Notes under the pieces: generated by a model | What the model was told of the DNA's origin: nothing | What the model saw: the letters and a program-made list of their open reading frames with translations, nothing else | The model's database searches: none | From: a virus | Length of the DNA stretch: 36,921 nt | IMG/VR virus record: IMGVR_UViG_3300045988_076101 | Strand: one strand, 5' to 3' | In this document: positions 2,838-25,374 of the stretch, piece after piece | Numbering within the stretch: position 1 is the stretch's first letter | Layout of the letters: each line of letters opens with the position of its first letter | Made by a program: the position numbers and the translations under genes

Positions 2838-3176
2838 ATGGTCAGTATAGACAGAATTCAATCCGGGATTGCCCGGTATCTTGATACAGAGATCGTTCCG
2901 AAGATGAGCGGAGTCAATAAGTGGCTGGTGTCGGCTGTTGCGTCGGCTTACATCTCGGATGCTCCGGAACTCCTCCGGAAGCTGAACGGAAACAAAGCCA
3001 TCGCCGCGCTGAATCTTATCGACGAAGCCGGTAATGTGGACGTTGAAAAAATATACCAGTCGCTGAAACCGGCAGCGGCGAAGTGCCCTGCGCCCATCAC
3101 CCTGCCAATCATAGGCACGCTGACCTTCACGGAGCAGGATGTGGACAGCCTGTATGCCTATATCATGCAGAGCTGA
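2838..3176 (+). CDS. Hypothetical protein (112 aa)
   Basis: ORF with a weak SD (gaaagga). Same strand and operon as 2249 and 3191. Confidence 0.55.
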   Translation: MVSIDRIQSGIARYLDTEIVPKMSGVNKWLVSAVASAYISDAPELLRKLNGNKAIAALNLIDEAGNVDVEKIYQSLKPAAAKCPAPITLPIIGTLTFTEQDVDSLYAYIMQS

Positions 3177-3190
3177 GAAAGGAAATTAAG

Positions 3191-3685: not shown

Positions 3686-3694
3686 GGCTCAAAA

Positions 3695-3782
3695 AGTATC
3701 TTGAAAGTATCTTGAGAGAGTCAGTATCTTGACCAGTATCTTGAAAAATTGAGGGTATTTGACGAGACTTGAGCAGACCTGA
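3695..3782 (+). repeat. attP arm: four perfect AGTATCTTGA direct repeats (3695, 3706, 3723, 3735) plus three degenerate copies (3754, 3764, 3774)
   Basis: Read directly, with spacing of 10-17 bp. The same decamer recurs twice on the other side of the core (3936, 3948). Confidence 0.75.
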
Positions 3783-3794
3783 GAAAACGAAAAA

Positions 3795-3824
3795 CCCTGT
3801 AGTTTCAACGACTACAGGGCTTTT
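3795..3824 (+). terminator. Rho-independent terminator closing the 2249-3685 operon
   Basis: ccctgtagt-ttcaacg-actacaggg followed by cttttcc. An A run upstream makes it potentially bidirectional. Confidence 0.7.
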
Positions 3825-3827
3825 CCT

Positions 3828-3874
3828 TGGAGCTGCTACCCAGATTCGAACTGGGGACCTCATCCTTACCAAGC
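3828..3874 (-). other. attP core: 3' portion of a tRNA-Thr(GGU)-like gene (anticodon loop to CCA)
   Basis: The minus strand reads CTTGGTAAGGATGAGGTCCCCAGTTCGAATCTGGGTAGCAGCTCCA. This gives T arm CCCAG-TTCGAAT-CTGGG, acceptor 3' strand TAGCAGC, discriminator and CCA, with loop TTGGTAA. There is no matching 5' acceptor strand upstream, so it is a fragment. Confidence 0.75.
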
Positions 3875-3932
3875 GGTTGGTGTTCGCGGCTATGTCCATT
3901 GAATTTTCAAGGGAGACACCGTTTTTACGCAG

Positions 3933-5126
3933 TTAAGTATCTTGAAAAGTATCTTGAGAGCTGAAGGCAGCAAGCACAGATTTTGCGGTATCTTCCGGGC
4001 GATTTTGCATCAGATGTGCGTATATATTCAGCGTGATCGCCGCCGTAGCGTGACCGGCGAGATACTGCGCCGTCTTGACATCTGCGCCGGACAGGATCAG
4101 CTCGGAAATGTATGTATGACGCAGCAGGTGCCGCGTTACATGGAAGTCGAAGGCAACCTTGACATTCCTATACGGAACATCATCCCCGACCTTCAGATCT
4201 TTTGTGATCGTCTTTCCATTGTTCTTATTATCCTTGTAGGTCACGGTGTGAACTTCGCGCACGGCGACGGCCTCCCATTCGTGCCGAAAGGACATGCTTG
4301 TATGAGGCGATCCGTCCCGGCGGCAGCAGACATAGCCGCTGTCGCGCCTGACGCTGCGCAGATGCTCCGTCAGAACGGGCGGTATCGGGACATCACGCCG
4401 CGCTGATTTGCTCTTAAGAGTATCCGTCAGAACAGGCTGATTGTGCTCCCATCGTAGAGCACGGCGGACACGGATGTGAGGAGCCTTGCCGTCGAGGTCG
4501 ACGCAGTCCCATTGCAGCCCCAGCGCCTCCTCCCTACGGAGTCCGGCATACATACAGAGCATGACGAAAGTCAGTATACGCTCCCCTTGCAGCTCTTTAA
4601 TGAGCGCGGTCTGCTGTTCTTTCGTCAGCGCGACCTTTTCGGGTGGCTTGCTGCCGCCGGCTTTAAGCCCCCGACACGGAGAGCGGCTGATCAGCTCGTT
4701 TTCCTCGGCTGCTGCAAACATCATCTTGAGCGTCGTGACGATCTTCTGCTGGCTCGCTTTCGACAGGTTCGCCGCGGCCAGCATTACGGCGCGAATGTTA
4801 TCCGGCTTCACCTCATCGAGACGCTGCTGCCCGATGACCGGGCAGATATGATTATTTATCGCGTTTCTGTGGCTCTGCCGCCCGCTGGAGGACAGCCCGG
4901 CGGTGTTCAGCTCGTACCACTTCGCAGCGTACTCAAATACATACGGCGACTGCGGGTTTTCCATCTCGGCAAACTCCGCCTCTTTTTCGCGCAAGCGCTC
5001 ACGCAGCTCAGCTTTCGTCTTACCGTAAATCGCAAGCCACTTGCCAGTCTGCGGATTTCTTATTTGCTTTTTATAGAGTTGCTTTTCTTTAACCCACGTA
5101 AACTCCGGGCGATTGTTCTTCGGCAT
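3933..5126 (-). CDS. int: Tyrosine recombinase / phage integrase
   Basis: 397 aa. Catalytic-type motifs AGLRREEALGLQW, HLLRHTYISE and GHATAAITLNIYAHL. SD aggtga upstream. Adjacent to the tRNA-like core. Confidence 0.9.
   Translation of the reverse strand: MPKNNRPEFTWVKEKQLYKKQIRNPQTGKWLAIYGKTKAELRERLREKEAEFAEMENPQSPYVFEYAAKWYELNTAGLSSSGRQSHRNAINNHICPVIGQQRLDEVKPDNIRAVMLAAANLSKASQQKIVTTLKMMFAAAEENELISRSPCRGLKAGGSKPPEKVALTKEQQTALIKELQGERILTFVMLCMYAGLRREEALGLQWDCVDLDGKAPHIRVRRALRWEHNQPVLTDTLKSKSARRDVPIPPVLTEHLRSVRRDSGYVCCRRDGSPHTSMSFRHEWEAVAVREVHTVTYKDNKNNGKTITKDLKVGDDVPYRNVKVAFDFHVTRHLLRHTYISELILSGADVKTAQYLAGHATAAITLNIYAHLMQNRPEDTAKSVLAAFSSQDTFQDT
3936..3957 (+). repeat. attP arm on the integrase side: two AGTATCTTGA repeats (3936-3945, 3948-3957)
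   Basis: Identical decamers in the same orientation as the four at 3695-3744. They overlap the last integrase codons (..QDTFQDT*). Confidence 0.7.
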
Positions 5127-5145: not shown

Positions 5146-5168
5146 CCTGTGCCCTAATTGGGCACAGG
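5146..5168. repeat. Palindrome family copy 2 (cctGTGCCCtaattGGGCACagg; 9-bp arms)
   Basis: Intergenic, between the integrase start and the stop of the Ltp-like gene. Confidence 0.8.
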
Positions 5169-5178: not shown

Positions 5179-6051
5179 TTAATATCCTGCTTTTGCGACG
5201 CCGTACTCGGCTTGTTCTTGAGAGAACCCCTCATATTTGAGCTGGTCAATCAGCCCTGACTTCGAGAACGAGGAGTGTTTCAGATACGATTCCGCGCACT
5301 TTGCTGCCTGTTCGTACCAGTCAGCGCCGCAGTTGTCGGCAGCAAACAGAGCTTCGGCATGAGTATACCCCTCATATTCGAGCTGTCCGATCAGGCCGGT
5401 GTACGAGAAAGACGAAGACCGCAGGTATGACAGCGCGGACTTGAGCGCGTTTTCCTCCCCAACGGTCTCGGCTGCTCTTAGCTTAGCCGAGGATGTCAAG
5501 TCGCCGGACGATATTTCATCGAAATAAGTCAGAACATCGTAAGAGACTGCCCCGTCGTAGATCTCAATCAGCGTATGCAGTCCCGTGTTCCCGTTGCTGT
5601 TGCGGAACGCCACGAAATCATTGTCATTGACAACAAGAATGTTAATGACAGGGTCGGTGCAGCCGTCGGCGACGAACTTATCAGTCAGCTCTTTACTCTT
5701 AGCGCATAAGGAGTCCTTAAGCGCCGTCCAATCATCATCTTGGTTGTTGTGCTCGGCGGAGAGCTGAATCGCTTGTTGTGTTATCGTTGTGTCCGCAAGG
5801 TACACCGTGAATGAAACCCCGCGGCTATTAGAATCGGCCTGAACGACAACAGCATCAAAGTCCCCGTTAAATGCCGAAGCTATAGCAAGTTTATAATTTC
5901 TCAGATCGTCTTCCGGTGTCGGCTCGGGTGTTGCGAGCTCAGCGGTTGACATCACGGGCTGCACACTGGAGGCCGGCGTCTTTGACATGGTGCCCATCAG
6001 AACGCCAAGAACAGCAATCAGAATGAGCAGATACCTCCACTTCAACTTCAT
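5179..6051 (-). CDS. Membrane-anchored protein with two C-terminal Ltp-type (host cell surface-exposed lipoprotein) repeats; superinfection-exclusion candidate
   Basis: N-terminal signal/anchor LLILIAVLGVLMG with no lipobox Cys. The C-terminus NALKSALSYLRSSSFSYTGLIGQLEYEGYTHAEALFAADNCGADWYEQAAKCAESYLKHSSFSKSGLIDQLKYEGFSQEQAEYGV fits the Ltp repeat pattern twice. Confidence 0.75.
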   Translation of the reverse strand: MKLKWRYLLILIAVLGVLMGTMSKTPASSVQPVMSTAELATPEPTPEDDLRNYKLAIASAFNGDFDAVVVQADSNSRGVSFTVYLADTTITQQAIQLSAEHNNQDDDWTALKDSLCAKSKELTDKFVADGCTDPVINILVVNDNDFVAFRNSNGNTGLHTLIEIYDGAVSYDVLTYFDEISSGDLTSSAKLRAAETVGEENALKSALSYLRSSSFSYTGLIGQLEYEGYTHAEALFAADNCGADWYEQAAKCAESYLKHSSFSKSGLIDQLKYEGFSQEQAEYGVAKAGY

Positions 6052-6075: not shown

Positions 6076-6098
6076 CCGGTGCCCGAATCGGGCACCGG
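6076..6098. repeat. Palindrome family copy 3 (ccgGTGCCCGAATCGGGCACcgg; 23-nt perfect palindrome)
   Basis: Intergenic, between the 6106..6651 and 5179..6051 minus-strand genes. Confidence 0.85.
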
Positions 6099-8875: not shown

Positions 8876-9073
8876 ATGAAAGTATTCGTCAGTATCTTCT
8901 TCGGAGCGGCGGTGATCCTCACGGCTTACTCAAATGTAGGCGCATGGCAGAGCGCGATTGTGCTCTGGAAGTACGGCAGCCGCTGGCCGGTCGCGGGCGT
9001 AGCCCTGCTGACGCTCCTGACGCTGTTCGCCTGGGCTGTGGGCTGCTACCTCATCAAGCATTACATATTTTAG
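8876..9073 (+). CDS. Hypothetical 65-aa protein with two TM helices
   Basis: The leader ggcagggaaatgaa repeats the end of the 7453 block. Hydrophobic helices VFVSIFFGAAVILTAY and VAGVALLTLLTLFAWAVGCYLI. Confidence 0.5.
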   Translation: MKVFVSIFFGAAVILTAYSNVGAWQSAIVLWKYGSRWPVAGVALLTLLTLFAWAVGCYLIKHYIF

Positions 9074-9228
9074 TTTTCTCCTTTTCTATCCTCTCTATAC
9101 CTTTCCCCTTGCATCTCCCCGCGGTCTTTGCTCTTCTTTTCCCACGGGGAGGCCTTAATGCAGCCGACGCCGGTCGCAAGCCCGGGAGCAAAATGCAGAG
9201 CGAGGCAGACAGAAAGCAGGTGACGATA

Positions 9229-9480
9229 ATGGACGAGCTCAAAAGGCTGCGCGAGGCCGCGGGACTATCCCAAGTCCAGCTTGCATTGAGACTGGGCGTG
9301 TCGCAGGGCACTATAGCACACTGGGAAATCGGCAGACGCGCTCCGCAGGCCAGGCACCTTATAAAGCTGGCGAACATCCTCGGATGCAGCGTTGACGCGC
9401 TGCTCGGACTGAACACCCAGAGCGCGGACGCAGCCCGTGACAATACAATACCTGACAGGGAGGTGCGCGTCAATGGATAA
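9229..9480 (+). CDS. XRE-family HTH protein (Cro/antirepressor-like; start 9229, alternative start 9193)
   Basis: LKRLREAAGLSQVQLALRLGVSQGTIAHWEIGRRAPQARHLIKLANILGCSVDALLG. Confidence 0.8.
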   Translation: MDELKRLREAAGLSQVQLALRLGVSQGTIAHWEIGRRAPQARHLIKLANILGCSVDALLGLNTQSADAARDNTIPDREVRVNG

Positions 9481-9925
9481 GGACGCCCGGAACATCTACA
9501 GAAACGCGCGGCAGACTGCCGGTCTGACGCAGGAGCGCTGGGCGGAGCTGCTGGGGATATCCCCGGACAGCGTCCGACGGTACGAGGCCGGGGCGATGCT
9601 CCCCAGCGACGAGACGGTGCTGATGATGGCGGAGACGACGGGAATCCTCGTTCTGCCGCTATGGCACCTCAGGGCTAAGAGCACGATAGCCGAGGACATG
9701 CTCCCGGATGTGCCGGACGTGCCGCTGCCTCAGGCGGTGCTGAAGCTGCTGACATCGGTCAAGGCCGTGAGCGGCAGCATCGACAACCTGATACAGATCG
9801 CGTCTGACGGCATGGTCGACAACCGCGAGGAGGCGCTCTTTGAGGAGATCGCAGGCGACCTCGACGACGTTATACAGGCGGCGATCGCCGTCAAGTGCGC
9901 GGGAGGTGCGAGGCATGCAGAGTGA
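9473..9925 (+). CDS. XRE-type HTH protein with a C-terminal domain of unknown function
   Basis: ATG 9473 overlaps the upstream stop (ATGGATAA). IYRNARQTAGLTQERWAELLGISPDSVRRYEAG is an HTH. Confidence 0.7.
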   Translation: MDKDARNIYRNARQTAGLTQERWAELLGISPDSVRRYEAGAMLPSDETVLMMAETTGILVLPLWHLRAKSTIAEDMLPDVPDVPLPQAVLKLLTSVKAVSGSIDNLIQIASDGMVDNREEALFEEIAGDLDDVIQAAIAVKCAGGARHAE

Positions 9926-10139
9926 CAGATATCAGGGACGCTTCCCCGGCTACACCGGGAAGAAGCTCTTCGAGGTCGAGCACCCGGTATTCGGGCGCTG
10001 CACCGTGGCCGCCCCCGACGAGAACGCGGCGCTGCTGCCCGCGGCGACCTTCTGGCACACGTTCTGGGGAGGGCAGGAGTTCTACGCATACGCGAAGGTA
10101 ACACGCGCCGGGCTGATGGAGAGGAACTCCAATGGTTGA
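9915..10139 (+). CDS. Hypothetical protein (74 aa)
   Basis: SD gggaggtg upstream of ATG 9915. Overlaps the upstream stop. Confidence 0.5.
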   Translation: MQSDRYQGRFPGYTGKKLFEVEHPVFGRCTVAAPDENAALLPAATFWHTFWGGQEFYAYAKVTRAGLMERNSNG

Positions 10140-10146
10140 GCTTACG

Positions 10147-10233
10147 ATGATGGTGCGCGCCGCGCTGTTCTTCGGCGTGATAGGGACTGTCCTCAGCGCG
10201 CTTGCGCTGGCGCTGTATTGGAGGAGGCACTGA
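10147..10233 (+). CDS. Possible 28-aa hydrophobic peptide (MMVRAALFFGVIGTVLSALALALYWRRH)
   Basis: Fills the gap between two genes, and its TGA overlaps the next ATG (TGATG). Single TM helix. Below the ORF-track cutoff. Confidence 0.35.
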   Translation: MMVRAALFFGVIGTVLSALALALYWRRH

Positions 10234-10502
10234 TGGACGATAAGCTTATATCGAAGCTGGACGCCGCCGATATGCTCGGGGTCTCCGTCAAGACCGTCGA
10301 GCGGATGATCGCCGACGGCGACCTGCCCATGTACAAGATTCGCGGGCAGTGCAGGCTGATGACGTCCGACATTAAGACGTACATAGCGGGCTGCCGCAGA
10401 GTTGCGGCTAAGGCAGCCCCCGTCCCCGCGCGCAGGCAGCCCGCCCGACGCGGCTCGAAGCTCGTCGGCTGCGGGTACTACCCGGGGATGAAAGTGGTAT
10501 AA
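10233..10502 (+). CDS. Excisionase-type (MerR/HTH_17-like) DNA-binding protein
   Basis: SD ggaggagg upstream of ATG 10233. LDAADMLGVSVKTVERMIADGDLPMYKIRGQCRL fits the excisionase-family HTH pattern. Confidence 0.65.
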   Translation: MDDKLISKLDAADMLGVSVKTVERMIADGDLPMYKIRGQCRLMTSDIKTYIAGCRRVAAKAAPVPARRQPARRGSKLVGCGYYPGMKVV

Positions 10503-10542
10503 CGGGCGCACTGCGCCTGAAATTTAGACAAGGAGGCTAATT

Positions 10543-10908
10543 ATGATCAAATGCGACGCTATGAAGCTCAACCCGCGCGGCCATGTGGTAGCCGAGGGCG
10601 GCCCTTTGCAGATTCTTTCAGAGGCAAAGCTCTTGTTCTGTGAACTTATTAATCGCGAGAAGCTTTCTCCCGTTGCGGCGCGCTTCGCAGTAGAGGCGGC
10701 TATAGAGGTATGCAAGCTCGGCAACAGAGAGCTCAGCTTTTCAGAATACTCCGCCGCTTGTGATATCGCCGAGAAAAGAGTCGGATTCGACTGGAGCAAG
10801 TTCGTCGAAGAATGCACCGGCACAGCTTTCCCCGGACGCACCGCTGGTAAGGACGACGGCGCGCCGACGGGCGACCGCTCGGTCGAGGTCTACGTTATCA
10901 AGCTCTGA
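10543..10908 (+). CDS. Hypothetical protein (121 aa)
   Basis: SD aaggagg upstream. Its stop codon is the first triplet of the 55-bp repeat. Confidence 0.55.
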   Translation: MIKCDAMKLNPRGHVVAEGGPLQILSEAKLLFCELINREKLSPVAARFAVEAAIEVCKLGNRELSFSEYSAACDIAEKRVGFDWSKFVEECTGTAFPGRTAGKDDGAPTGDRSVEVYVIKL

Positions 10909-11280: not shown

Positions 11281-12038
11281 CAGTTCAGGAGTTCCTGAAG
11301 GTCGAATTTAACGGCGACGGCTACGGCTCCGGCGACGGCTACGGCTCCGGCGACGGCTACGGCTCCGGCGACGGCTCCGGCTCCGGCTACGGCGACGGCT
11401 CCGGCTCCGGCGACGGCTCCGGCGACGGCGACGGCTCCGGCTACGGCTACGGCGACGGCTACGGCTCCGGCGACGGCTCCGGCTCCGGCTACGGCTCCGG
11501 CTCCGGCTACGGCTACGGCTACGGCTCCGGCTCCGGCTACGGCGACGGCTCCGGCGACGGCTCCGGCTACGGCTTAAAGAGTCTCTGTGGAGAACCTGTC
11601 TATATGATCGACGGTGTGCCGACGATCATCACCGGGCTCCGCGGCTCTGTCGCGATGGGGTTTATCGTGATGACCGACCTGTCGAAGCGCAAGACATTTG
11701 TCGTCAAGGGCGGCGGAAAGTTCGCGCACGGTGAGGATCTCCACGCAGCTCAGGCAGCGCTGGAGGAAAAGCTTTTTGACGATATGCCCGTCGAGGAGAA
11801 GCTTGAAGCGTTCCGGGAGCAGTTTACACCGGGCGAGGCTTACACCGTCGCGGACTTCTATGACTGGCATCATCGCCTCACGGGCAGCTGCACGCAGGGG
11901 CGCGACGCCTTCGCGCAGGATCATGAGCTCAGCATGAACGACGCCATGACTCCGGAGGAGTTCATCGACCTGACTAAGGACGCATTTGGCGGCCGGATCA
12001 TCCGCCAGCTTGCGGAGCACTACGGTATTGATCTGTGA
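11268..12038 (+). CDS. Protein with an 87-residue (Gly-X)n tract (X = Asp/Tyr/Ser) and a conserved C-terminal domain of unknown function
   Basis: ATG 11268 overlaps the upstream stop. The C-terminal domain has the motif WHHRLTGSCTQGRDAF. Its stop is the first triplet of 55-bp repeat copy 2. Confidence 0.7.
   Translation: MDSLTVQEFLKVEFNGDGYGSGDGYGSGDGYGSGDGSGSGYGDGSGSGDGSGDGDGSGYGYGDGYGSGDGSGSGYGSGSGYGYGYGSGSGYGDGSGDGSGYGLKSLCGEPVYMIDGVPTIITGLRGSVAMGFIVMTDLSKRKTFVVKGGGKFAHGEDLHAAQAALEEKLFDDMPVEEKLEAFREQFTPGEAYTVADFYDWHHRLTGSCTQGRDAFAQDHELSMNDAMTPEEFIDLTKDAFGGRIIRQLAEHYGIDL
11313..11573 (+). repeat. In-frame hexanucleotide tandem repeat built from only four codons (GGC + GAC/TAC/TCC)
   Basis: 261 nt read directly. 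Every odd codon is GGC and every even codon is GAC, TAC or TCC. Confidence 0.95.
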
Positions 12039-12090
12039 GCGCTTTGGAACCTGCGGCATCGGGAACGGTGCCGCATATCGAGAGCACTCG
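12036..12090 (+). repeat. 55-bp intergenic element copy 2
   Basis: One mismatch to 10906-10960. Lies immediately upstream of the SD of the replisome-organiser gene. Confidence 0.9.
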
Positions 12091-12109
12091 AAAAAGAGGA
12101 GGAGAGACT

Positions 12110-12868
12110 ATGGCTACAGGCGCATTATGCCGAAAGCCCGGATACTGGGCAGTCCTTCCCGCAAGGGTACGGTATGACGAAGAGCTGCGCCCCAATGCGA
12201 AGCTCATTTATGCAGAGATCACGGCGCTTGCGGACAGCACCGGTTTTTGCTGGGCGACAAACAAGTACCTGAGCGAGCTTTTCGGGCTGTCCAAGAAGAC
12301 CGTCAGTGATCTGATCGGGACGCTTGAGAAAAAAGGCTACATACAGATCGAGGTCGTTCGCGACGAAAAAGGCGCGGTTTCAGACCGAAAAATCTACGTC
12401 GACCGCGTGAGTGTCGTAGTGCCTGACCCTATCCCTAAAAATGGGGATAGGTATCCCCAAAATAACGGATACCCTATCCCCAAAAATGGGGAAGAGAATA
12501 ATATATATATTAACAATAACCCCCCTATATCCCCCCAGAGGGATGATGTGTGTGTTTCTGAACCGAAGCATAAGCCGGAGCGCTTCACCAAGCTCTGGAG
12601 CTTCTACCCGCACTCCAAGCGCGGCAGCAAGCAGCGGGCTATGAGGGCATGGGACAAGCTCAAACCATCGGACGAGCTGATCGACACCATCGCCAAGGCG
12701 CTCTTGCGGCAGCTCCGGACGGACGAATGGAGCCGCGGCATAGGGGTGCCGCACCTCAGCTCCTACCTCAACGGGCGGCTCTGGCTCGACGCCGAGGAGA
12801 TCGACGAGGCGGAGCCTGCGGCGATGTTCGAGACTGACGACGTGGAGGTCTTGCCGTTATGGACGTGA
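12110..12868 (+). CDS. Replisome organiser / replication initiator-like protein (N-terminal winged-HTH, HTH_36-like)
   Basis: SD gaggagga upstream of ATG 12110. AKLIYAEITALADSTGFCWATNKYLSELFGLSKKTVSDLIGTLEKKGYIQIE. Directly upstream of and overlapping dnaB. Confidence 0.7.
   Translation: MATGALCRKPGYWAVLPARVRYDEELRPNAKLIYAEITALADSTGFCWATNKYLSELFGLSKKTVSDLIGTLEKKGYIQIEVVRDEKGAVSDRKIYVDRVSVVVPDPIPKNGDRYPQNNGYPIPKNGEENNIYINNNPPISPQRDDVCVSEPKHKPERFTKLWSFYPHSKRGSKQRAMRAWDKLKPSDELIDTIAKALLRQLRTDEWSRGIGVPHLSSYLNGRLWLDAEEIDEAEPAAMFETDDVEVLPLWT
12426..12520 (+). promoter_or_regulatory. Candidate origin of replication inside the organiser gene: two 22-bp iterons, one degenerate copy and an A/T-rich stretch
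   Basis: accctatccc(t/c)aaaaatgggga at 12426-12447 and 12471-12492. Partial copy gtatccccaaaataacgga at 12451-12469. gaagagaataatatatatattaacaataac at 12491-12520, in an otherwise GC-rich genome. Confidence 0.5.
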
Positions 12869-14214
12869 AGAACGACAAGACGCTGTACTCACAGCAGTCG
12901 CTGCTCGGTTCAATGCTTATCTCCCCGGAGATTTGCGGCGCGGTGTTCCAGCGCGTCAAGGCCGACGACTTCGGCGACAAGTGGTGCCGGGAAGCGTTCA
13001 AGCAGCTCCGGGTGATGTTCTTCGGCAATGAGCCCGTAGACCCGGCAGTATTGGCCAGCCGCCTCGGAGACGGCGCGACACAGTTCCTCGCCGATCTGAT
13101 GCGCATGACGCCGACCGCTGCGAACTGGGAAGCATACGCCGACATAGTCGAGGACTCCGGAAAGCTCCGGCAGCTTCAGGCCGTCGCGATGCAGATAGTT
13201 ACCTCCCCCGACCTCGACTGTGCGCGCAAGGCTCTGGCGCAGGTCGACCGGGTCGTTATCAAGCCCCGCATCCGCGTCGCGTCCTACTCGGACAGCCTCG
13301 GCCGCCTGCTTGATTATCTGGGCGACCCGACCCCGCCGCAGTACATAGACTGGGGCATCCCCACTATCAACGACACGGTGCAGGTCGCCGCCGGGGATTA
13401 CATGATCATCGGCGCTGACAGCTCCGTCGGCAAGACGGCGATAATGCTTCAGTTGGCACTCAACGCCGCAAAGAGCGGCAAGCGCGTCTGCATCTTCAGC
13501 CTTGAAACCACAGAGCGCAAGCTCCTGATGCGCAGCGTGGCGCAGAACACCGGTGTGAACTTCCAGGCGATGAAAAACAAGCGGCTGAGCAAGGACGACT
13601 ACTCCCGCATCATGGACTACGGCGAGAAAACCTCAAGGCTTGTCTGCGACGTTGCCGAAGCGTCCGGCGCGACTATCGACGATATCCGCGCCGTAGCCGT
13701 CGCGAACCGATACGACATCGTCATGCTGGACTATCTGCAAATCGCCAACGCTGAGGGCGGTTCCCGCCCGGAGATAGTCACGAACATCTCCATACAGCTC
13801 CGTACACTGGCGCAGTCCCTCGGTGTAACGGTTGTCGCTTTGTCGCAGCTGACCCCGCCGGACAACCAAGCGAAGTTACGCAACGCGCCGATCATCCCGA
13901 ATGTCGAGATGCTGCGAGAGTCCCGGCAGCTCAAACAGGACGCCGACATAATTCTGCTCATGGGGCTGGTCAAGCCCGGCGACCGCGCCAGCGATCGTAT
14001 CGTCGTGATCGACAAGAATAAGGACGGCCCCTGCGGTCAGCTATACCTCAGCTTCGACCCCGCGCACATGCGGTTTGACCCCGTGTCTGACGCAACGTCG
14101 AGGAAGTACTGGGAAGCCCAGCAAAAGGCGCTCAAGGCCGCAGCACTCAAAAAACGAGCCGGACAGATCACGTTTGAAGAGCTGCCGGACAACGGCGACG
14201 AGCTCCCGTTTTAG
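12859..14214 (+). CDS. dnaB: Replicative DNA helicase, DnaB family
   Basis: 451 aa. Walker A GADSSVGKTA, then LDYLQI, then the RESRQLKQDADIILL motif pattern of the DnaB C-terminal domain. Confidence 0.9.
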   Translation: MDVKNDKTLYSQQSLLGSMLISPEICGAVFQRVKADDFGDKWCREAFKQLRVMFFGNEPVDPAVLASRLGDGATQFLADLMRMTPTAANWEAYADIVEDSGKLRQLQAVAMQIVTSPDLDCARKALAQVDRVVIKPRIRVASYSDSLGRLLDYLGDPTPPQYIDWGIPTINDTVQVAAGDYMIIGADSSVGKTAIMLQLALNAAKSGKRVCIFSLETTERKLLMRSVAQNTGVNFQAMKNKRLSKDDYSRIMDYGEKTSRLVCDVAEASGATIDDIRAVAVANRYDIVMLDYLQIANAEGGSRPEIVTNISIQLRTLAQSLGVTVVALSQLTPPDNQAKLRNAPIIPNVEMLRESRQLKQDADIILLMGLVKPGDRASDRIVVIDKNKDGPCGQLYLSFDPAHMRFDPVSDATSRKYWEAQQKALKAAALKKRAGQITFEELPDNGDELPF

Positions 14215-14227: not shown

Positions 14228-14419
14228 ACGAAGATCGGAGACAAGATTCGGTTTATCCCCTCAGCATGGACACAGTTCAGCGACGTAAGTTCCCTCAGCT
14301 CCTACGGCGTCAAGGGTGACGTCGAGGGCGAGATCGTCGAGATCAACTGGGCGCACCGGTGGTACAGAGCACGGTACCAGGCGGGCGGCGCGACACTTTA
14401 CGAGTCATTCAAATTTTAA
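14228..14419 (+). CDS. Probable small protein (..KIGDKIRFIPSAW...YESFKF) lacking any canonical start codon; ACG at 14228 sits where ATG is expected
   Basis: The frame is open over 14222-14416 and has GC3-rich, coding-like codons. Strong SD aggaggtg at 14213-14220. It fills the 234-nt gap between dnaB and parA. No ATG, GTG, TTG or CTG occurs in frame. Confidence 0.4.
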   Translation, partial: TKIGDKIRFIPSAWTQFSDVSSLSSYGVKGDVEGEIVEINWAHRWYRARYQAGGATLYESFKF

Positions 14420-14448
14420 GCAAAATCAGAGTCTGGAGGACCACAACG

Positions 14449-15180
14449 ATGAGAACAACCGCGATAATCAACCTCAAGGGCGGCGTCGCAAAGACGACGA
14501 CAGCCCTGAACATGGCCGCGATACTGGCCAAGGACTACAAGCAGCGCGTCCTGTTAGTGGACGCGGACAGCCAATGCAACTGCACCGAGTTTTTCCAGCG
14601 CGACGCGGTGCACCCCGGCACCCTCGCCGATATGCTGCGCGGCCTCGCGCCGTGCATCGAGCACAGCCGTTTTGACGGCGTCGACCTCCTTCCGGGAGAC
14701 GACAGCCTGATGGACCTCGACCTGACGAAGATCGAGACCGGCAGCGCCTCCGCCGTGTGCCTGCGTGAGCTGACCGCGGAGCTGGGCGACAGGTACGACC
14801 GGATGATCATCGACTGCCCGCCGGCGTTCAATGCGGCTTCTGCCGCGGCGCTGGTGGCGGCGGACGAGGTCATCATCCCGATCAAACTCGATGCGTTCAG
14901 CCTGCGCGGGATGGCGAACATCATGCAGCAGGTCAGCAACATGCGCAAGATCAACGACAGCCTCACCGTTGCCGGCATACTGCCGACGATGTGGTACAAG
15001 TCAGACAACATCATTGAGGCCGAGAAGATGCTGCGCGAGTTCGGGCTCCCGGTGCTGCCGCATGTTCGGCGCACGAACAAGGTCGACGACATGACCTTTG
15101 CACAGGAGCCGCTTGTTATCAGCTCGCCGAAGAGTGCGGCGGGCGTCGATTACCGCCGCGTCGTCGCGGCGCTGATGTGA
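14449..15180 (+). CDS. parA: ParA/Soj-type partition ATPase
   Basis: SD tggagga upstream of ATG 14449. Deviant Walker A IINLKGGVAKTTTALN, then VLLVDADSQCN. Confidence 0.85.
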   Translation: MRTTAIINLKGGVAKTTTALNMAAILAKDYKQRVLLVDADSQCNCTEFFQRDAVHPGTLADMLRGLAPCIEHSRFDGVDLLPGDDSLMDLDLTKIETGSASAVCLRELTAELGDRYDRMIIDCPPAFNAASAAALVAADEVIIPIKLDAFSLRGMANIMQQVSNMRKINDSLTVAGILPTMWYKSDNIIEAEKMLREFGLPVLPHVRRTNKVDDMTFAQEPLVISSPKSAAGVDYRRVVAALM

Positions 15181-15192
15181 GGAGGTGCGGTC

Positions 15193-16659
15193 ATGGGATT
15201 CGATTTAGCATCGGTGCTCAAGAATGTGCCCGATTCGGGCACAAATGACGGCCGTGAGCGCATCGAGTACATAGGGCTCGACAAGCTGCACGACGACCCG
15301 AATAACTTCTACTCCCTCGACGGCATCGAGGAGCTTGCCGAAAACATCGAGTTTGCGGGGCTCCAGCAGCCCGTCCGCGTCCGCCGCGATGCGGAGCACA
15401 GCGGCGAGTACATCATCGTCAGCGGCCACCGCCGCACGGCGGCGATGCGCAAGATTGTCGAGGACGGCAACAAGGCCTTTGAGACGGTGCCCTGCATCGT
15501 CGAGGCCGAGGGCGGCAGCGAGGCGCTGCGCGAGCTGCGCCTGATCTATGCCAACTCCGACACCCGCCGGATGTCCTCCGCTGATATCTCGAAGCAGGCC
15601 GAGCGCGTCGAGGCGCTGCTCTACCAGCTCAAGGAGGAGGGCGTTGAGTTCCCCGGCAGGATGCGCGACCACGTCGCCGAGGCCTGCAAGGTGAGCAAGT
15701 CGAAACTGTCCCGCCTGAAGGTGATCCGCGACAAGCTCGCGCCGGACATTTACGCCGGGTACTATGAAAAGGGCAAGCTGCCAGAGGACACGGCCTATAC
15801 GCTCGCTAAGCTTCCGGTCGGCGTCCAGCGTGACATTGTTGACCGCGCGACGCGGGATGGGCGGCAAAACATCCAGTATCTTTACGCGGCCAAAGTCGAA
15901 GATCAGGGCAAGGACATCGCGCGTTTCAGCAAAATGGCCTGCCGCTGCGAGCAGGGCGGAATCTGTATCAATGTTCCAAACCTGATGGATAAACTCTATG
16001 ACACTCGCGGATGGCGAGGAGATACTCACTGCGGCTCCGGCTGCTGCTACGACTGCGATGAGCTTGCGACCTGCTCAAAATGCTGCTCACGCATGGCGGC
16101 AGTCAAGGCGCAGAGAAAAGCCGAGATAAAAGAGGCCAAAGCCGCGGAAACTGCGGCACAGGCCGAACGCGACATGCCAAAGGTCGACGCGCTGAGGCTC
16201 CTCTGGAACCGGATGGGCGAGGCCTGCAAACGGGCAGGCGTTGATTATACTGAGGTCTGCTCCGAGGCCGACATTTACTCCCCGTTGCCGCCCAAGGACG
16301 CGACCGCGCTGCTTAACGGCGCTGGCAAGCTTGAGGTCAGCTGCCGCCCACCGTTCGGCTACGTCGTGAGCCTCCGTGATATCAAAGTTCTCGTCAAGCT
16401 GGCCGATCTGCTCGGCTGCTCGCTGGATTATCTCTTCGGCCGCGATGTGCCCGAATCGGGCACCGGCACGGCGGAGCCGAAGTGGCAGACCGGGGAGCCG
16501 CCGGAGGATGGCGAGTACGTTGTCTGGGCTGAAAGTCCGGACGAGGAAGCAGGATATACAGATATATCCGTTTATGAAAATGGCAGCTGGTGCGGCTACG
16601 GTTCCGCTGGGAATGCATATAGGGTCGTCGGCTGGTGGCCGATACCGCCGGAAGTGTAA
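15193..16659 (+). CDS. parB: ParB-like multi-domain protein (ParB/Srx N-terminal domain, HTH, Cys-rich cluster, XRE-like helix fragment, DUF551-like C-terminus)
   Basis: IIVSGHRRTAAM (GxRR box). CRCEQGGICINV...HCGSGCCYDCDELATCSKCC. LADLLGCSLDYLFGRD. The C-terminal YVVWAES...VVGWWPIPPEV. Confidence 0.75.
   Translation: MGFDLASVLKNVPDSGTNDGRERIEYIGLDKLHDDPNNFYSLDGIEELAENIEFAGLQQPVRVRRDAEHSGEYIIVSGHRRTAAMRKIVEDGNKAFETVPCIVEAEGGSEALRELRLIYANSDTRRMSSADISKQAERVEALLYQLKEEGVEFPGRMRDHVAEACKVSKSKLSRLKVIRDKLAPDIYAGYYEKGKLPEDTAYTLAKLPVGVQRDIVDRATRDGRQNIQYLYAAKVEDQGKDIARFSKMACRCEQGGICINVPNLMDKLYDTRGWRGDTHCGSGCCYDCDELATCSKCCSRMAAVKAQRKAEIKEAKAAETAAQAERDMPKVDALRLLWNRMGEACKRAGVDYTEVCSEADIYSPLPPKDATALLNGAGKLEVSCRPPFGYVVSLRDIKVLVKLADLLGCSLDYLFGRDVPESGTGTAEPKWQTGEPPEDGEYVVWAESPDEEAGYTDISVYENGSWCGYGSAGNAYRVVGWWPIPPEV
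15225..15243. repeat. Palindrome family copy 4 (tGTGCCCGATTCGGGCACa), inside parB codons (..NVPDSGTN..)
   Basis: Read directly. Confidence 0.85.
16447..16463. repeat. Palindrome family copy 5 (GTGCCCGAATCGGGCAC), inside parB codons (..DVPESGTG..)
   Basis: Read directly. Same reading phase relative to the palindrome as copy 4. Confidence 0.85.
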
Positions 16660-18258: not shown

Positions 18259-18509
18259 CACGGAAGAGATTCATCAAATTGCTGATGGCAAGGGGTGTCC
18301 CTCGAAATGCGGCTATCCGCACTGCGTCTGCTGTAGTCAAAATGCGGAGGTCTTACGAGTCTGCATGGGCTGTGCAGCTGTTCGCTGATGAGGTATTTCA
18401 AGTTCTCTGCTCGACCTTTGATCAAGCAGTCGAGGCTTTTGGCGTGATCTGCGCCGCAGCTCTGCTCAACAAACGGCGCGTCGCAAAAGCACTTAAAGTG
18501 TCATTGTAA
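18255..18509 (+). CDS. Hypothetical protein (84 aa)
   Basis: ATG 18255 overlaps the upstream stop (ATGA). Confidence 0.45.
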   Translation: MTRKRFIKLLMARGVPRNAAIRTASAVVKMRRSYESAWAVQLFADEVFQVLCSTFDQAVEAFGVICAAALLNKRRVAKALKVSL

Positions 18510-18569
18510 AAATCTTAATTAAACATTGCGGTCTATGGCCATGGGGCAAAGGACGTCAGGAGTATGTAC

Positions 18570-19292
18570 ATGGCTTACCGCAAAAAGATCATATCGGCCG
18601 GGCCGCTGGTCAAGGAGATCATATATCCGTATCGCTCAGGCGGCAGCAGCTCAAACGGCCGGCGGCGCACCGGGACAAGCTCGGAAGCGCAGCGCCGGAT
18701 GAACGCTATCTATTCGTGGCAGAAACTTGAGCTGCTGCTCGCGGCGAACCTCGTCAAGGGCGACGTCGTCGGGTGCCTGACCTTCGACGACTATCACCTC
18801 CCGGAGACCCGCGAGCAGGTTCGGAATAAATTCAAGTGGTTTCTTGATAAGCTCCGGGCAGCGCGTGAGGAACGCGGACAGAATCTCGTCATGTTCTGGT
18901 CGATTGAGCATCTGCACGGCGAGGGGCGCTGGCATATTCACATAGCCTGTAACGCGACCGGTAACGACTACGAGGAAATACTTCGGCTATGGGGGCAGGG
19001 CGAGTGTGAGTTCAACGCGCTGCGCGTCGATAAGAAAAAGAACTATGAGACCTTGGCCCGGTACATGGCCAAGGAGGAACGGGACAAGATAGGGCAGCGC
19101 TCTTGGAGCTACACCCGCAACGCTAAGAAGCCGGAAGTCGAGAGCTTCTCCGTGCGGGAGTTCACGCCGCTGCGCGTGCCGAAGGACACGACAGTGTTCG
19201 AGGACGTCCGCAGCCGCGGCGAATGGCAGTACATCAAATACGCTTATAACAACGCGCTTAAGGTTCGGCGGCACCGCAGACGCCGGTCGTAG
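18570..19292 (+). CDS. HUH-superfamily rolling-circle replication initiator-like protein
   Basis: SD aggag 7 nt upstream of ATG 18570. Motif 1 VVGCLTFDD, motif 2 GRWHIHIACN (H-u-H) and motif 3 TLARYMAKE (Y..K), in the canonical order and spacing. Confidence 0.55.
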   Translation: MAYRKKIISAGPLVKEIIYPYRSGGSSSNGRRRTGTSSEAQRRMNAIYSWQKLELLLAANLVKGDVVGCLTFDDYHLPETREQVRNKFKWFLDKLRAAREERGQNLVMFWSIEHLHGEGRWHIHIACNATGNDYEEILRLWGQGECEFNALRVDKKKNYETLARYMAKEERDKIGQRSWSYTRNAKKPEVESFSVREFTPLRVPKDTTVFEDVRSRGEWQYIKYAYNNALKVRRHRRRRS

Positions 19293-19295
19293 ATT

Positions 19296-19312
19296 GTGCC
19301 CGATTCGGGCAC
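19296..19312. repeat. Palindrome family copy 6 (GTGCCCGATTCGGGCAC)
   Basis: Starts 4 nt after the TAG of the Rep-like gene. Confidence 0.85.
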
Positions 19313-19385
19313 CGGAAAATCTTTTTTATAAATTTTTTCTGGCTTGAAACCTATGTTATTAAAAGGAAAGGAGTGCTGAAAAGTA

Positions 19386-19586
19386 TTGCAATCTCAAAGC
19401 TTTTCTGATAAACTAACAGTGAAAGACGGGTTCCTCCAGTGCCCGACCTGCCGCGGCAACAAAAAGCTGCTTAAGATCGAGCCGGACACGACGGCGACTA
19501 ATCTGGTCGTCTTCTGCCGTTTCTGTAAAACCGAACATCGGATCGACATCAGTCGGGGCCAGTGCTTTGAGAGCCGGGGCCAGTGA
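19386..19586 (+). CDS. Cys-rich KTR-family-like zinc-ribbon protein (non-ATG start: TTG 19386 or GTG 19419)
   Basis: LQCPTCRGNKKLLKIEPDTTATNLVVFCRFCKTEHRIDI fits CPxC..K..KI..DT...N....C..CK.E..I. No in-frame ATG. Confidence 0.5.
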   Translation: MQSQSFSDKLTVKDGFLQCPTCRGNKKLLKIEPDTTATNLVVFCRFCKTEHRIDISRGQCFESRGQ

Positions 19587-19627
19587 TAGACACATGAGTG
19601 TGTTTGTTGCTGGCCCCGGCTCTTTTT
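19571..19627 (+). terminator. Strong Rho-independent terminator
   Basis: gagccggggccag (19571-19583) pairs with ctggccccggctc (19610-19622), followed by tttttcgttt. Confidence 0.8.
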
Positions 19628-19691
19628 CGTTTCCCGGACAGCGCCGAGGCGATAGCCGGCGCACGGGAAAGAAAGGGTCGGGTGTCCGCGT

Positions 19692-20006
19692 ATGAGTCAA
19701 TCCTGGGCAAGAGGGTTCTACTCCGGCAAGGCATGGCTGCGCTGCCGTGCGGCGTTCATCGCCAAGCGCCGAGCGATCGACGGCGGGATGTGTATGGACT
19801 GCGGCGAGAGGCTCGGCTACATCGCGCATCACTGGCCGGTCATGCTGACGGCCGAGACCGTCAACGATCCGGACATCGCGCTTAACCACGCGAATCTACG
19901 GTGGGTCTGCAAAGAGTGCCACGACAAGTATCCCGGGCACGGCGTTGCGCCGTCGCTCGCGCCGCTGATCCGCTTCGACGCTGACGGCGACCCTATCCCC
20001 CCGTAA
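19692..20006 (+). CDS. HNH endonuclease (packaging-associated)
   Basis: GYIAHHWPV...ALNHANLRWVCKECHDK. Located immediately upstream of the terminase genes. Confidence 0.85.
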   Translation: MSQSWARGFYSGKAWLRCRAAFIAKRRAIDGGMCMDCGERLGYIAHHWPVMLTAETVNDPDIALNHANLRWVCKECHDKYPGHGVAPSLAPLIRFDADGDPIPP

Positions 20007-20164
20007 TTTTTCTGCGGCTTCAGCCGCTCCTGACCGCCGCCCAGCATCGGGAGAATACACAGGGTCGCGCAAGGCCCCCCACCGAAAGCGCAAAAATCGG
20101 GCAGAAGAAAAATATCAACAAAGACCCCGCGCACATGAGGAAAAGCCGCGAAAGGAGGGCGAAA

Positions 20165-20542
20165 ATGGGACGAAATGCAAAGCCAAAGACCAAAGCTGAC
20201 CGGATAAAAGCCGAGAAAAAACGGCTTGAATCCATCTACCAGGACATAGACCCCGTTCGCCAGAAGCTCGCCGCTCCGCTCATCGAGCGCGCCGCTTTCA
20301 TGCGCATCGAGTGCGAGGATCTCGAAGCCGACATCAAGGAGAACGGCTGGACGGAAATGTTTACCCAGTCGGCCAACGTCGAGCCTTATGCCCGTGCCCG
20401 TCCGCAGGGGCAGAGTTATCAGAGTTTGAACGGGAACTACCAGAAGATCATCCGGCAGCTCGACTCCATGCTCCCCGCCGTTGCCGGCAACAGCGAGGAC
20501 GACGGCTTCGGCAGTTTTGTCACGGGGCGTGATGACCCGTGA
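20165..20542 (+). CDS. terS: Terminase small subunit (P27-family-like)
   Basis: SD aaaggaggg upstream of ATG 20165. MGRNAKPKTK N-terminus. Position upstream of, and overlapping, terL. Confidence 0.7.
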   Translation: MGRNAKPKTKADRIKAEKKRLESIYQDIDPVRQKLAAPLIERAAFMRIECEDLEADIKENGWTEMFTQSANVEPYARARPQGQSYQSLNGNYQKIIRQLDSMLPAVAGNSEDDGFGSFVTGRDDP

Positions 20543-22284
20543 CAAAGCGCAGGTCGTATCCCCTCACTTTCGCCCCGATACGCGAGTACTGGGCGAAAAT
20601 CGAGAGCGGGCAGGAAGTCGTCTCGCAGAAGATCTACCGGACCTACCGGCACATAGTCCGCCGCATGGACGGAGAATGCTCGGAGTATTTCTACGACCCG
20701 CGGCGCGCTAACCACGTGATCGAGTTCGTCGAGAACTACTGCCGGCACTCCAAGGGCAAGCTCGGCGGTCAGCTCATTCAGCTTGAGCTTTGGGAAAAAG
20801 CGATGCTCGCGACGGTGTTCGGCTTCGTCGACATCGAGGGCAACCGCCAGTACCGCGAGGCGATCCTGATCGTCGGCAAGAAGAACGGCAAGAGCCTGCT
20901 CGCCTCGGCGATAGGCCTGTACATGCAGCTTGCCGATTCTGAGCCCGGCCCGGAGGTCTATGCAGTCGCTACCAAGCGAGACCAGGCTAAAATCATCTGG
21001 TCCGAGGCAAAGCGCATGGTGCAGAAGTCCCCGACGCTGCTCAAGCGTGTGCGGCCGCTCGTCGGCGAGATCGCCAGCGACTACAACGACGGCGTATTCA
21101 AACCGCTGTCCTCCGACAGCGACACGCTGGACGGCCTCAACGTTCATTGCGCGCTGCTCGACGAGATTCACCAGTGGAAGAACGGGCGGCAGCTGTACGA
21201 CATCATCGCCGACGGTATGTCCGCCCGCGAGCAGCCGCTGCTGTTCATCACCTCGACCGCCGGCAAGATTCGTGAGGATCTGTACGACGAGAAGTACGAG
21301 GAGATAGAGCGGGTCATTAACGGCTATGACGATCCTGACGGCTATCACGACGACCGCCTCATCGCGTTCGTCTACGAGCTCGACGCCCGTGCGGAGTGGA
21401 CAGACCCCGCCTGCTGGAAAAAGGCCAATCCCGGCCTCGGCACCACCAAGAGCTACAGAACGCTTGCAGAGAAGGTCGAGAAGGCCAAGGCAAACCCCGC
21501 GCTTGTCAAGAATCTGGTCTGTAAGGAGTTTAACATCCGCGAGACTAGCTCCGAGGCGTGGCTCACCTTTGAGGAGCTCGACTGCCGCGACACGTACAAG
21601 CTCAACCCCTCGGAGCGGATCTTCGTCTGGGTGCATGACGGCGTTGAAGAGGTGCTGCCGTATCCGACCTACGGTATCGGCGGCGTTGACCTGTCGAGCA
21701 CGACCGACCTCACGGCCGCCCGTGTCATCTTCCAGGTTCCCGGGTGTGAGAAGATCTTCTCGATCTCTATGTACTGGCTGGCCGAGGATCTTCTCACCAA
21801 GCGAGTCAACGAGGACAAGATCCCGTATGACAAGTGGCTCGACCGCGGGCTGGTTCAGCTCAGCCCCGGCAACCACGTTCACGCGAAGTACGTCAAGGAG
21901 TGGTTTGTCTACGTTCAGGAGGAACTGGACATCTACATCCCCTACGTCGGATACGACAGCTGGAGCGCGACCTACTTCGTTGAGGACATGGCCGACTACT
22001 TCGGCAAGATGTCAATGATCCCGGTCGTGCAGGGTAAGAAGACGCTCAGTGAGCCGATGAAGCGCCTCGGCAATGACCTCGGCAGCAAGCGCATCATCTA
22101 CAACAACAATCCGATCGACAAGTGGTGCCTGGCGAATACGGCTTACGACGAGGACGTTAACGGCAACATTCAGCCGCATAAGACCAGCAAGCCGACCCGC
22201 CGCATTGACGGCACGGCTGCACTGCTGGACGCGTACACCGTGTTCCTGGACAAGCAGGACGAATACCGCGACCTAATCGCATAG
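20539..22284 (+). CDS. terL: Terminase large subunit (Terminase_1-like)
   Basis: 581 aa. Walker A-like ILIVGKKNGKSLL. GTG start overlaps the terS stop. Confidence 0.9.
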   Translation: MTKRRSYPLTFAPIREYWAKIESGQEVVSQKIYRTYRHIVRRMDGECSEYFYDPRRANHVIEFVENYCRHSKGKLGGQLIQLELWEKAMLATVFGFVDIEGNRQYREAILIVGKKNGKSLLASAIGLYMQLADSEPGPEVYAVATKRDQAKIIWSEAKRMVQKSPTLLKRVRPLVGEIASDYNDGVFKPLSSDSDTLDGLNVHCALLDEIHQWKNGRQLYDIIADGMSAREQPLLFITSTAGKIREDLYDEKYEEIERVINGYDDPDGYHDDRLIAFVYELDARAEWTDPACWKKANPGLGTTKSYRTLAEKVEKAKANPALVKNLVCKEFNIRETSSEAWLTFEELDCRDTYKLNPSERIFVWVHDGVEEVLPYPTYGIGGVDLSSTTDLTAARVIFQVPGCEKIFSISMYWLAEDLLTKRVNEDKIPYDKWLDRGLVQLSPGNHVHAKYVKEWFVYVQEELDIYIPYVGYDSWSATYFVEDMADYFGKMSMIPVVQGKKTLSEPMKRLGNDLGSKRIIYNNNPIDKWCLANTAYDEDVNGNIQPHKTSKPTRRIDGTAALLDAYTVFLDKQDEYRDLIA

Positions 22285-25355: not shown

Positions 25356-25374
25356 TGTGCCCGAATCGGGCACA
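25356..25374. repeat. Palindrome family copy 7 (tGTGCCCGAATCGGGCACa)
   Basis: Starts immediately after the TAA of the capsid gene. Confidence 0.85.

Follow-up and report, generated by a model that had tools for sequence, protein, structure and literature searches.

A small HUH Rep and a linked candidate origin at the boundary between early and late genes of a temperate siphovirus

The 36,921-nucleotide stretch of viral DNA analyzed here (IMG/VR record IMGVR_UViG_3300045988_076101; below, the window) encodes a 240-residue protein that is an HUH-type rolling-circle replication protein (Rep) by family, motifs, conserved residues, and fold. Its gene, rep, is followed by a conserved element with an invariant CTTG that is a candidate for the double-strand origin of this protein. 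In the best-supported reading of these sequences, to which we attach about even confidence, Rep would be a cis-acting rolling-circle initiator that uses the element beside its own gene as origin, with synthesis directed rightward into the late region and concatemers as the product. A role in concatemer-producing rolling-circle replication had already been proposed in an original prediction made from the sequence of the window alone. The same prediction offered nicking at dispersed hairpins as an alternative, and this idea did not survive comparison with related phages. Table 1 collects the positions of all features.

The open reading frame (ORF) and its three Rep motifs, in canonical order, proved to be real and located where they had first been reported. 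The ORF as listed spans 18564..19292 on the plus strand, which makes ATG 18564 an alternative start for rep. Because ATG 18570 has the better Shine-Dalgarno spacing (AGGAG 9 nt upstream) and agrees with the N-termini of homologues (MA.RKK), the 240-residue product is the likely one; the stop codon is TAG at 19290–19292. A Pfam search at E ≤ 10 returned PF23343 (REP_ORF2-G2P) as the sole family, with 40.3 bits against a gathering cutoff of 27.8 over Rep residues 68–169. The profiles that had been suggested for this protein (Rep_1, Rep_2, Rep_trans, Phage_CRI, and Y1_Tnp) gave no match at this threshold, and neither did Phage_GPA. In the PHROGs collection the protein belongs to phrog_3584, "replication initiation protein" (4e-40). 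NCBIfam contained zero matches for Rep, and a sequence search of the PDB with a Rep profile gave no relevant match.

Homologues are annotated in two isolated phages, Flavonifractor phage Cormatin (WAK79867; locus L001 in our collection) and Clostridium phage PhiS63 (gp31/YP_006383535; L002). Both belong to the same protein family, share 25–30% identity with Rep, and carry the name "replication initiation protein"; literature searches returned no functional study of either one. An alignment of 20 Rep sequences that includes these two and reaches down to 25–28% identity shows H122, H124, Y159, Y165, and K168 as invariant and E169 as at least 90% conserved. Across a 42-sequence alignment, G119, R120, H122, H124, Y165, K168, and E169 are all invariant. 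An AlphaFold (AF2) model, recommended earlier as a check for the HUH fold, was built from this alignment and is confident (predicted local distance difference test score 87, predicted template modeling score 0.84); it places the Y165 motif on helix 159–166. The best Foldseek match to this model in the PDB is the SIRV1 ORF119 Rep (2x3g; E 3.7e-3, prob 1.0, TM score 0.66 normalized by target length), followed by the adeno-associated virus Rep origin-binding domain, the Rep nuclease domains of geminivirus and circovirus, and an IS200-type transposase. Among the predicted viral structures of BFVD, 130 fold matches were found at E ≤ 1e-3. The top ones are "Replication gene A" and "ORF2/G2P domain" proteins of uncultured siphoviruses (E 2e-15, TM score 0.69), and microvirus replication initiators come next. 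Neither of the results named beforehand as speaking against the assignment, a missing HUH fold or unconserved His or Tyr residues, was observed.

Rep is a small, nuclease-only protein of the phiX174-A/ORF2-G2P class. It shares with phiX174 gpA the HUH fold class and a set of motifs that align (TLTxxDD, GRxHxH, and Y-[VM]-AK), and microvirus Reps are among its structural matches. Both proteins are likely to act in cis on an origin that lies within the gene or next to it. Where gpA has YVAKYVNK, Rep has YMAKEERD, so that Rep retains the first catalytic tyrosine and has the invariant Glu169 in place of the second. Membership in Phage_GPA would call for a hidden Markov model (HMM) match and two tyrosines at positions i and i+4; Rep shows no match to this HMM at E ≤ 10, and its i+4 residue is Glu169. 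The two systems also differ in scale, with 513 residues for gpA versus 240 for Rep, and a 5-kb single-stranded DNA virus versus a 37-kb double-stranded DNA tailed temperate phage.

The precedent for an HUH nickase as initiator of a tailed, double-stranded DNA temperate phage is gene A of P2 and 186, which encodes an HUH Rep that drives rolling-circle replication of the phage and acts in cis at an origin close by. The A protein of P2, large and with two tyrosines, belongs to the Phage_GPA family and is the sole initiator of its phage, whereas the Rep described here usually resides beside a DnaD-like organizer, DnaB, and ParAB, at the boundary between early and late genes. A third point of comparison are the Rep_1 proteins of plasmids such as pC194 and pUB110. 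The catalytic residues of pC194 Rep are E210 and Y214, an order of glutamate and tyrosine opposite to that in the present Rep. Like our protein, Rep_1 enzymes use a single catalytic tyrosine with an acidic residue one helical turn away, and they occur in Firmicutes hosts; the CTTGA core of their nick motif (CTTG/ATA) is also shared (PMC10378824). Unlike Rep_1 proteins, Rep has no Rep_1 HMM match and no homologue among the plasmids of PLSDB.

Alignment of the DNA that follows the rep stop codon defines an element with the consensus CTTTTTATwwAwTTTTTC-wGv-CTTG-rrnnnn-ATrTTAwy. It is non-coding and consists of two T-tracts about 11 bp apart, the invariant CTTG, and an AT-rich box. We collected 71 unique versions, which adjoin rep genes that are 35–98% identical to that of the window. 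For loci with Reps that are 30–55% identical, the pairwise identity of the element is 0.61–0.71, versus 0.57–0.62 at codon positions 1+2 of rep and 0.40–0.43 at position 3. A position weight matrix (PWM) of the 26-nt core has a single match in the window (19339–19364, 36.3 bits), and the next best scores 5.9. Most relatives carry a zinc-ribbon gene, KTR, just downstream; the KTR-less loci L056/57, L059, and L176 still have the element beside rep. The constant part CTTG(A) agrees with the phiX174 origin CAACTTG/ATATTAATAAC (annotated as rep_origin in NC_001422), and in the candidate origin CTTGA is likewise followed by an AT-rich, TATTAA-like stretch. It also overlaps the nick motif of Rep_1 plasmids, CTTGATA (PMC10378824), which is found in exact form in a few rep loci. 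A putative nick in the window would fall between G19346 and A19347.

The isolated phages extend the association beyond the gene order seen in the window. In PhiS63, unlike in the window, rep lies in the middle of the early region, about 5 kb from the HNH and terminase genes, and there is no KTR. The top PWM match in this 33.6-kb genome, which was left out of PWM construction, is GAGGCTTGTAATAGGTATTATCTTAA, which precedes rep by 77 nt. A top match within about 150 nt of rep on the same strand would arise by chance with a probability of approximately 0.4%. The best match in Cormatin shares bases with the rep stop codon. A divergent clade (L183, L216, L221, and L298) contains a variant, ACTTG..TAGTTGAAC, between rep and KTR. 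On these grounds, we regard the element as a candidate for the double-strand origin of Rep.

Three other functions for the element were considered and rejected. The T-tracts could be the tail of an early-operon terminator, but in most loci the T-run is not directly preceded by a hairpin. A sigma-A promoter would require a different geometry, as only about 5 nt separate the TTGA box from the TATATT box. A cos or pac site is contradicted by the cassette of rep, element, and KTR, which is paired with unrelated terminases, and by PhiS63, where the element is far from the terminase genes.

Several observations weigh against the proposed initiator and its origin. The PhiS63 match scores 13.5 bits, within the range of shuffled sequences (maximum 14.4), so only its location is telling. 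In the distant loci L060, L297, and L177–L179 the best PWM match is not beside rep, and the scans are ambiguous. Nearly every locus entered the collection by way of its rep gene, which introduces some ascertainment bias into the linkage statistics. Viral pattern matches included no phage with KTR and the element but no rep; since every match with KTR had rep or ended at the edge of the locus, this comparison cannot separate rep from KTR. The likeness to known nick sites covers five bases, which makes it a lead and not a proof. At the protein level, the Foldseek E-values against the PDB are weak, with none at or below 1e-3, and an hhalign comparison of Rep with gpA was not significant (prob 3.3%), although motif 1 and HUH still align. 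Literature searches found no experimental work on this Rep subfamily, nor on Rep in siphoviruses of this kind. Finally, a conserved sigma-A promoter follows the element at a distance of about 40 bp, so that the element could be a site of transcriptional control.

With these reservations, the cleavage by Rep, its position, direction, and timing, and the division of labor with the organizer and DnaB might be as follows. Rep would bind the bent, T-tract-rich DNA of the element and cut the top strand in the invariant CTTG/A core (slash, putative cut), which would leave the protein linked via Tyr165 to the 5' end. The freed 3'-OH would be extended rightward by the host polymerase into the packaging and structural genes, and the top strand would be displaced to give sigma-form concatemers for the HNH/terminase machinery. 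The organizer and DnaB could supply an early, theta-type initiation, or helicase and priming functions for the displaced strand, or both. The presence of one tyrosine with a nearby glutamate instead of two tyrosines would, judging by the enzymology of phiX174 and pC194, make re-initiation in each round unlikely and would suit continuous sigma replication.

How far this picture applies beyond the window depends on the distribution of the gene. A large protein database contains 393 close relatives of Rep, and PF23343 was found in 120/120 of the matches listed. A profile search of representatives at 50% identity returned 3,263 clusters at E ≤ 1e-3 and 191 at E ≤ 1e-30, mostly of 230–270 residues. 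We located rep relatives in 58 viral contigs and in 43 loci of bacterial genomes; the hosts are Oscillospiraceae, Ruminococcaceae, Lachnospiraceae, and other Clostridia, mostly as metagenome-assembled genomes from the gut. The absence of Rep homologues from PLSDB plasmids indicates that this subfamily is phage-borne. In more than 100 related prophages and viral contigs, rep is usually the last early gene ahead of the packaging genes. The position just upstream of HNH and terminase, which the original prediction had recognized in the window, is therefore the rule in the lineage and not unusual there; the prediction had called the roles it proposed unusual for an HK97-like temperate siphovirus. 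The family also has its own Pfam and PHROG entries.

Co-occurrence was counted in 51 unique loci that are less than 90% identical to the window and include at least 7 kb upstream of rep. Homologues of DnaB are present in 44 of these loci, of the organizer in 42, and of the ParB-like protein in 38, while seven lack both organizer and DnaB; overall, about 85% carry the organizer/DnaB module. The organizer/DnaB module noticed earlier in the window is thus real (Table 1), and its coexistence with Rep is the norm in the lineage, though not obligatory. In L031, in L032 (the same contig as L074), and in PhiS63, rep is the sole recognizable replication gene. The cassette of rep, element, and KTR occurs with unrelated packaging modules, as large terminases (TerL) are 21–27% identical in some loci versus 72–98% in others. 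It is also paired with several types of early region, which contain ParAB, PcfJ/DUF3102, or none of these.

These counts bear on a first alternative, in which Rep is the primary initiator, replication is of the rolling-circle type from the start, and organizer and DnaB are accessories for helicase loading and lagging-strand priming without a separate theta origin. The constancy of rep next to a variable organizer and DnaB, the phages in which rep has no recognizable partner, and the range of early regions with which it pairs are all consistent with this scenario. Yet, DnaD/O-like organizers normally mark an origin of their own, and the retention of DnaB in most loci suggests a role that is not redundant. 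We consider a primary initiator possible, if unlikely.

A second alternative concerns the surroundings of the element. KTR is located downstream of rep in 83 of 94 unique loci, with an almost universal TTG start, and comparison across loci shows clear selection at the protein level. Its 5' end coincides with a sigma-A-type promoter for which the pattern across loci is TTGcaa-17-TGnTAnAAT. Here conservation is higher for the DNA than for the encoded residues, with free variation at the third position of the -10 hexamer. The pattern persists in loci where the TTG is followed by TGA as a start-stop (L055 and L159) and in loci without the ORF (L056/57). A simple promoter scan of positions 18300–20200 reported no promoter, with the window copy at 19386–19414 under threshold. 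The last codons of KTR (..CFESRSQ and stop) also form the 5' arm of a strong intrinsic terminator that separates the rep-KTR unit from the HNH and terminase genes. All 32 loci that were folded (32/32) have such a terminator, with a stem of about 17 to more than 20 bp and a T-rich tail. The promoter-to-terminator distance is approximately 165–200 nt, and the late genes come next. This order of a constitutive-looking promoter, a short transcript, and a strong terminator is like that of lambda PR'-tR' and suggests that the late genes may be under antitermination. The window yielded no sigma, RinA, or ArpU-type regulator, and an Rfam search of positions 18400–20200 gave sub-threshold hairpin matches only. 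In the annotation of Cormatin, a shorter ORF that overlaps KTR is named "translational regulator". After the terminator and before the HNH start (about 19645–19665), a short motif GGAGGTGATAGCC recurs in many loci, among them L030, L043, L049, L087, L139, and Cormatin (L001 9025–9040); the window copy is degenerate (GAGGCGATAGCC). The motif is conserved beyond the needs of a ribosome-binding site and may belong to the cos region or to the start of HNH translation.

Given this layout, the element could be a transcriptional control region for a late-gene switch, with Rep as its regulator or a mere neighbor and with the true nick site elsewhere or unconserved. The element covers about -40 to -105 of the promoter, ahead of the terminator and the late genes, and L056/57 retain element and promoter despite the loss of the KTR ORF. 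The PhiS63 copy lies in a promoter-like gap upstream of rep. Reps of parvoviruses and geminiviruses do regulate promoters near their origins. On the other hand, the element has no sigma-A geometry itself, in PhiS63, L059, and L176 it stays with rep where neither KTR nor a terminase gene is near, and a pure DNA-binding regulator would not need the strict conservation of His, Tyr, and Glu. A purely transcriptional role of the element is in our view distinctly unlikely. We also judge it improbable, but worth stating, that rep, the CTTG element, KTR, promoter, and terminator form one conserved early-to-late switch in a large group of siphoviruses from gut Clostridia. A site-specific nick by Rep, some 40 bp ahead of the promoter, would then begin rightward rolling-circle synthesis, and this nick or its fork would license read-through of the terminator into HNH, terminase, and head genes and so couple late transcription and packaging to concatemer replication.

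Very improbable is the idea that the cassette is a self-interested or conflict module outside of the phage's own replication, such as a hitchhiking mini-replicon or a nuclease against competitors. Its pairing with unrelated packaging and differing early modules would fit such a role, as would tandem rep paralogues in L045 and L163. However, PADLOC reported no match for Rep, KTR, or the neighboring genes, the position and orientation of the cassette are fixed in the operon structure of the phage, and in some phages rep is the only replication-type gene. The paralogues of L045 occupy 8965–9738 and 10001–10762, and those of L163 (Colidextribacter sp. OB.20) have the same arrangement; the two L045 paralogues both match PF23343 and phrog_3584.

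The dispersed hairpins of the original prediction are copies of a 17-bp palindrome, GTGYCC-N5-GGRCAC. One copy indeed starts at the fourth base past the rep TAG, and the window contains seven sites with three or fewer mismatches, versus 0.16 expected from shuffled sequences. Five of the seven are intergenic (on both sides of an Ltp-like gene, after the capsid gene, and after rep), and two lie in frame within the ParB-like gene (15226–15242 and 16447–16463). The genes flanked by intergenic copies are moron-like. Related phages contain several copies each, with GTGCCC or GTGTCC stems. A copy that adjoins the rep stop is confined to the clade of the window and to L025/L139, and most relatives have none at this place. 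Where it does occur, it has the look of a sequence inserted after the stop codon and ahead of the conserved element.

The copy with a conserved position is a different one: in more than 25 divergent loci it lies within the ParB-like gene, about 30 nt from the 5' end. Here, paired changes in the two arms (C>T with G>A) keep the symmetry and turn VPDSGT into VSKLDT. Since symmetry is kept while residues are altered, selection must act on the DNA of this palindrome. The density of copies is 1.83 per 10 kb in loci with the ParB-like gene (zero copies in 1 of 38), versus 0.58 per 10 kb in loci without it (zero in 7 of 13). A scan of viral contigs for the exact 17-mer uncovered at least 114 new stretches, 97 of which have neither Rep nor ParB detectable locally. 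Conversely, the Rep-bearing loci L155, L156, L163, L074, L057, and PhiS63 contain no palindrome at all. The palindrome family is separate from Rep and is not its partner. Frequent mixed half-sites (GTGCCC...GGACAC), which are mismatched as a hairpin, fit a dimeric protein that binds double-stranded DNA better than a hairpin substrate, and the palindrome is probably the binding site of such a protein. The ParB-like protein is the leading idea for this partner. It is kept as an idea and not as a conclusion because of three exceptions: ParAB is absent from L144 despite five copies, L156 is free of copies although ParB is present, and L031 has four copies and only an ORF that resembles the C-terminal part of the ParB-like family. 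In view of L144, L031, and the many unrelated contigs that bear palindromes, a plain parS function of the palindromes is only partly tenable.

That Rep nicks these palindromes in the manner of RAYT-type or other hairpin-nicking enzymes is scarcely credible: in the window clade and in L025/L139 the rep stop is followed at once by a copy, copies 0.5–1.8 kb from rep are common in other loci, and IS200/IS605- and RAYT-type HUH enzymes do recognize hairpins, but Rep has no Y1_Tnp match at E ≤ 10, the copies follow the ParB-like gene where symmetry itself is under selection, several loci with Rep are free of copies while most palindrome-bearing viral stretches lack rep, and mixed half-sites would mismatch in the hairpin. 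The palindromes are part of a different, probably ParB-like system, and treating them as substrates of Rep would be a mistake.

The remaining genes of the window describe a temperate phage. The lysogeny genes on the minus strand (3.9–7.3 kb) comprise an integrase, an Ltp-like exclusion gene, and repressor-type helix-turn-helix (HTH) genes. The rightward early region runs from HTH regulators through organizer, DnaB, ParA, the ParB-like gene, and small ORFs to rep. After HNH, the late genes encode a small-terminase-like protein, TerL, a portal, a ClpP-type protease, and an HK97-family capsid protein. Cormatin shows the same synteny of organizer, DnaB, ParA, ParB-like gene, rep, KTR, HNH, and terminase. 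The position of ParAB is filled in some relatives by PcfJ-like and DUF3102 proteins (L032 3152–6018 and L045 5427–8519). These two families are typical of conjugative elements in Firmicutes, and their presence points to module exchange between such elements and the prophages. L031, which is without organizer, DnaB, and ParAB, has two genes in its lysogeny region (2433–5107, minus strand) that are DnaQ-like, exonuclease-type candidates by their motifs; both are bracketed by GTGTCC palindromes. The GC skew of the window peaks near 20 kb, a peak that is confounded by gene content and is not used as evidence.

Table 1. Positions of rep, the linked element, and other features in the window.
Feature	Position	Strand	Basis or remark
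rep, 240-residue HUH rolling-circle Rep	18570..19292	+	PF23343; phrog_3584; AF2 model; Foldseek matches to Rep nucleases
Rep motif 1, VVGCLTFDD (residues 65–73)	18762..18788	+	T71 and D73 at least 90% conserved; aligns with phiX174 gpA TLTLADD
HUH motif, GRWHIHIACN (residues 119–128)	18924..18953	+	aligns with gpA GRLHFH
Catalytic Tyr motif, TLARYMAKE (residues 161–169)	19050..19076	+	Y165, K168, E169; gpA YVAKY at the matching place
Rep-linked element, candidate double-strand origin	19321..19366	+	two phased T-tracts, CTGG-CTTG-AAACC, then ATGTTATTA
Palindrome copy after rep, GTGCCCGATTCGGGCAC (GTGCCCGAWTCGGGCAC)	19296..19312		between the rep stop and the conserved element
KTR (Cys_rich_KTR zinc ribbon), 66 residues, TTG start	19386..19586	+	PF14205, 27 bits versus cutoff 25.5
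Sigma-A-type promoter within the KTR 5' end	19386..19414	+	TTGCAA, 17 nt, TGA-TAAACT
Strong intrinsic terminator	19573..19630	+	20-bp stem and T-run; partly the KTR 3' end
HNH endonuclease (19692–20006), small-terminase-like gene, large terminase	19692..22284	+	start of the late operon
Organizer (DnaD/O-like)	12035–12868	+	phrog_270 1e-36; HTH_36/DnaD_N
DnaB helicase	12859–14214	+	PF03796; PF00772
ParA (14359–15180) and ParB-like gene (15193–16659)	14359..16659	+	phrog_164 6e-56; PF02195 27.4 bits; phrog_27290 4e-97
Tyrosine integrase	3933–5126	-	
Ltp-type lipoprotein (superinfection exclusion)	5179–6051	-	PF07553; phrog_4980; between integrase and repressor-like genes; a palindrome copy on each side
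Palindrome copies	888–904, 5149–5165, 6079–6095, 15226–15242, 16447–16463, 19296–19312, 25357–25373		

The Pfam and PHROG families, the annotation as a replication initiation protein in two isolated phages, and the precedent of HUH-driven rolling-circle replication in P2 and 186 were known before. What this analysis adds is a precise, testable candidate for the origin and the description of a conserved cassette at the boundary between early and late genes. The gut is rich in temperate siphoviruses of Oscillospiraceae and Ruminococcaceae, and these phages have hardly been studied. The switch from early replication to the concatemers needed for packaging is a question that a small nickase and its candidate origin make directly testable in such phages, and two isolates are at hand, Cormatin from Flavonifractor plautii and PhiS63 from C. 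perfringens. If the proposed role of Rep is true, the protein would provide a compact new specificity for HUH-tags, and HUH-driven rolling-circle replication in tailed phages would extend from the P2 group to a large lineage in Firmicutes.

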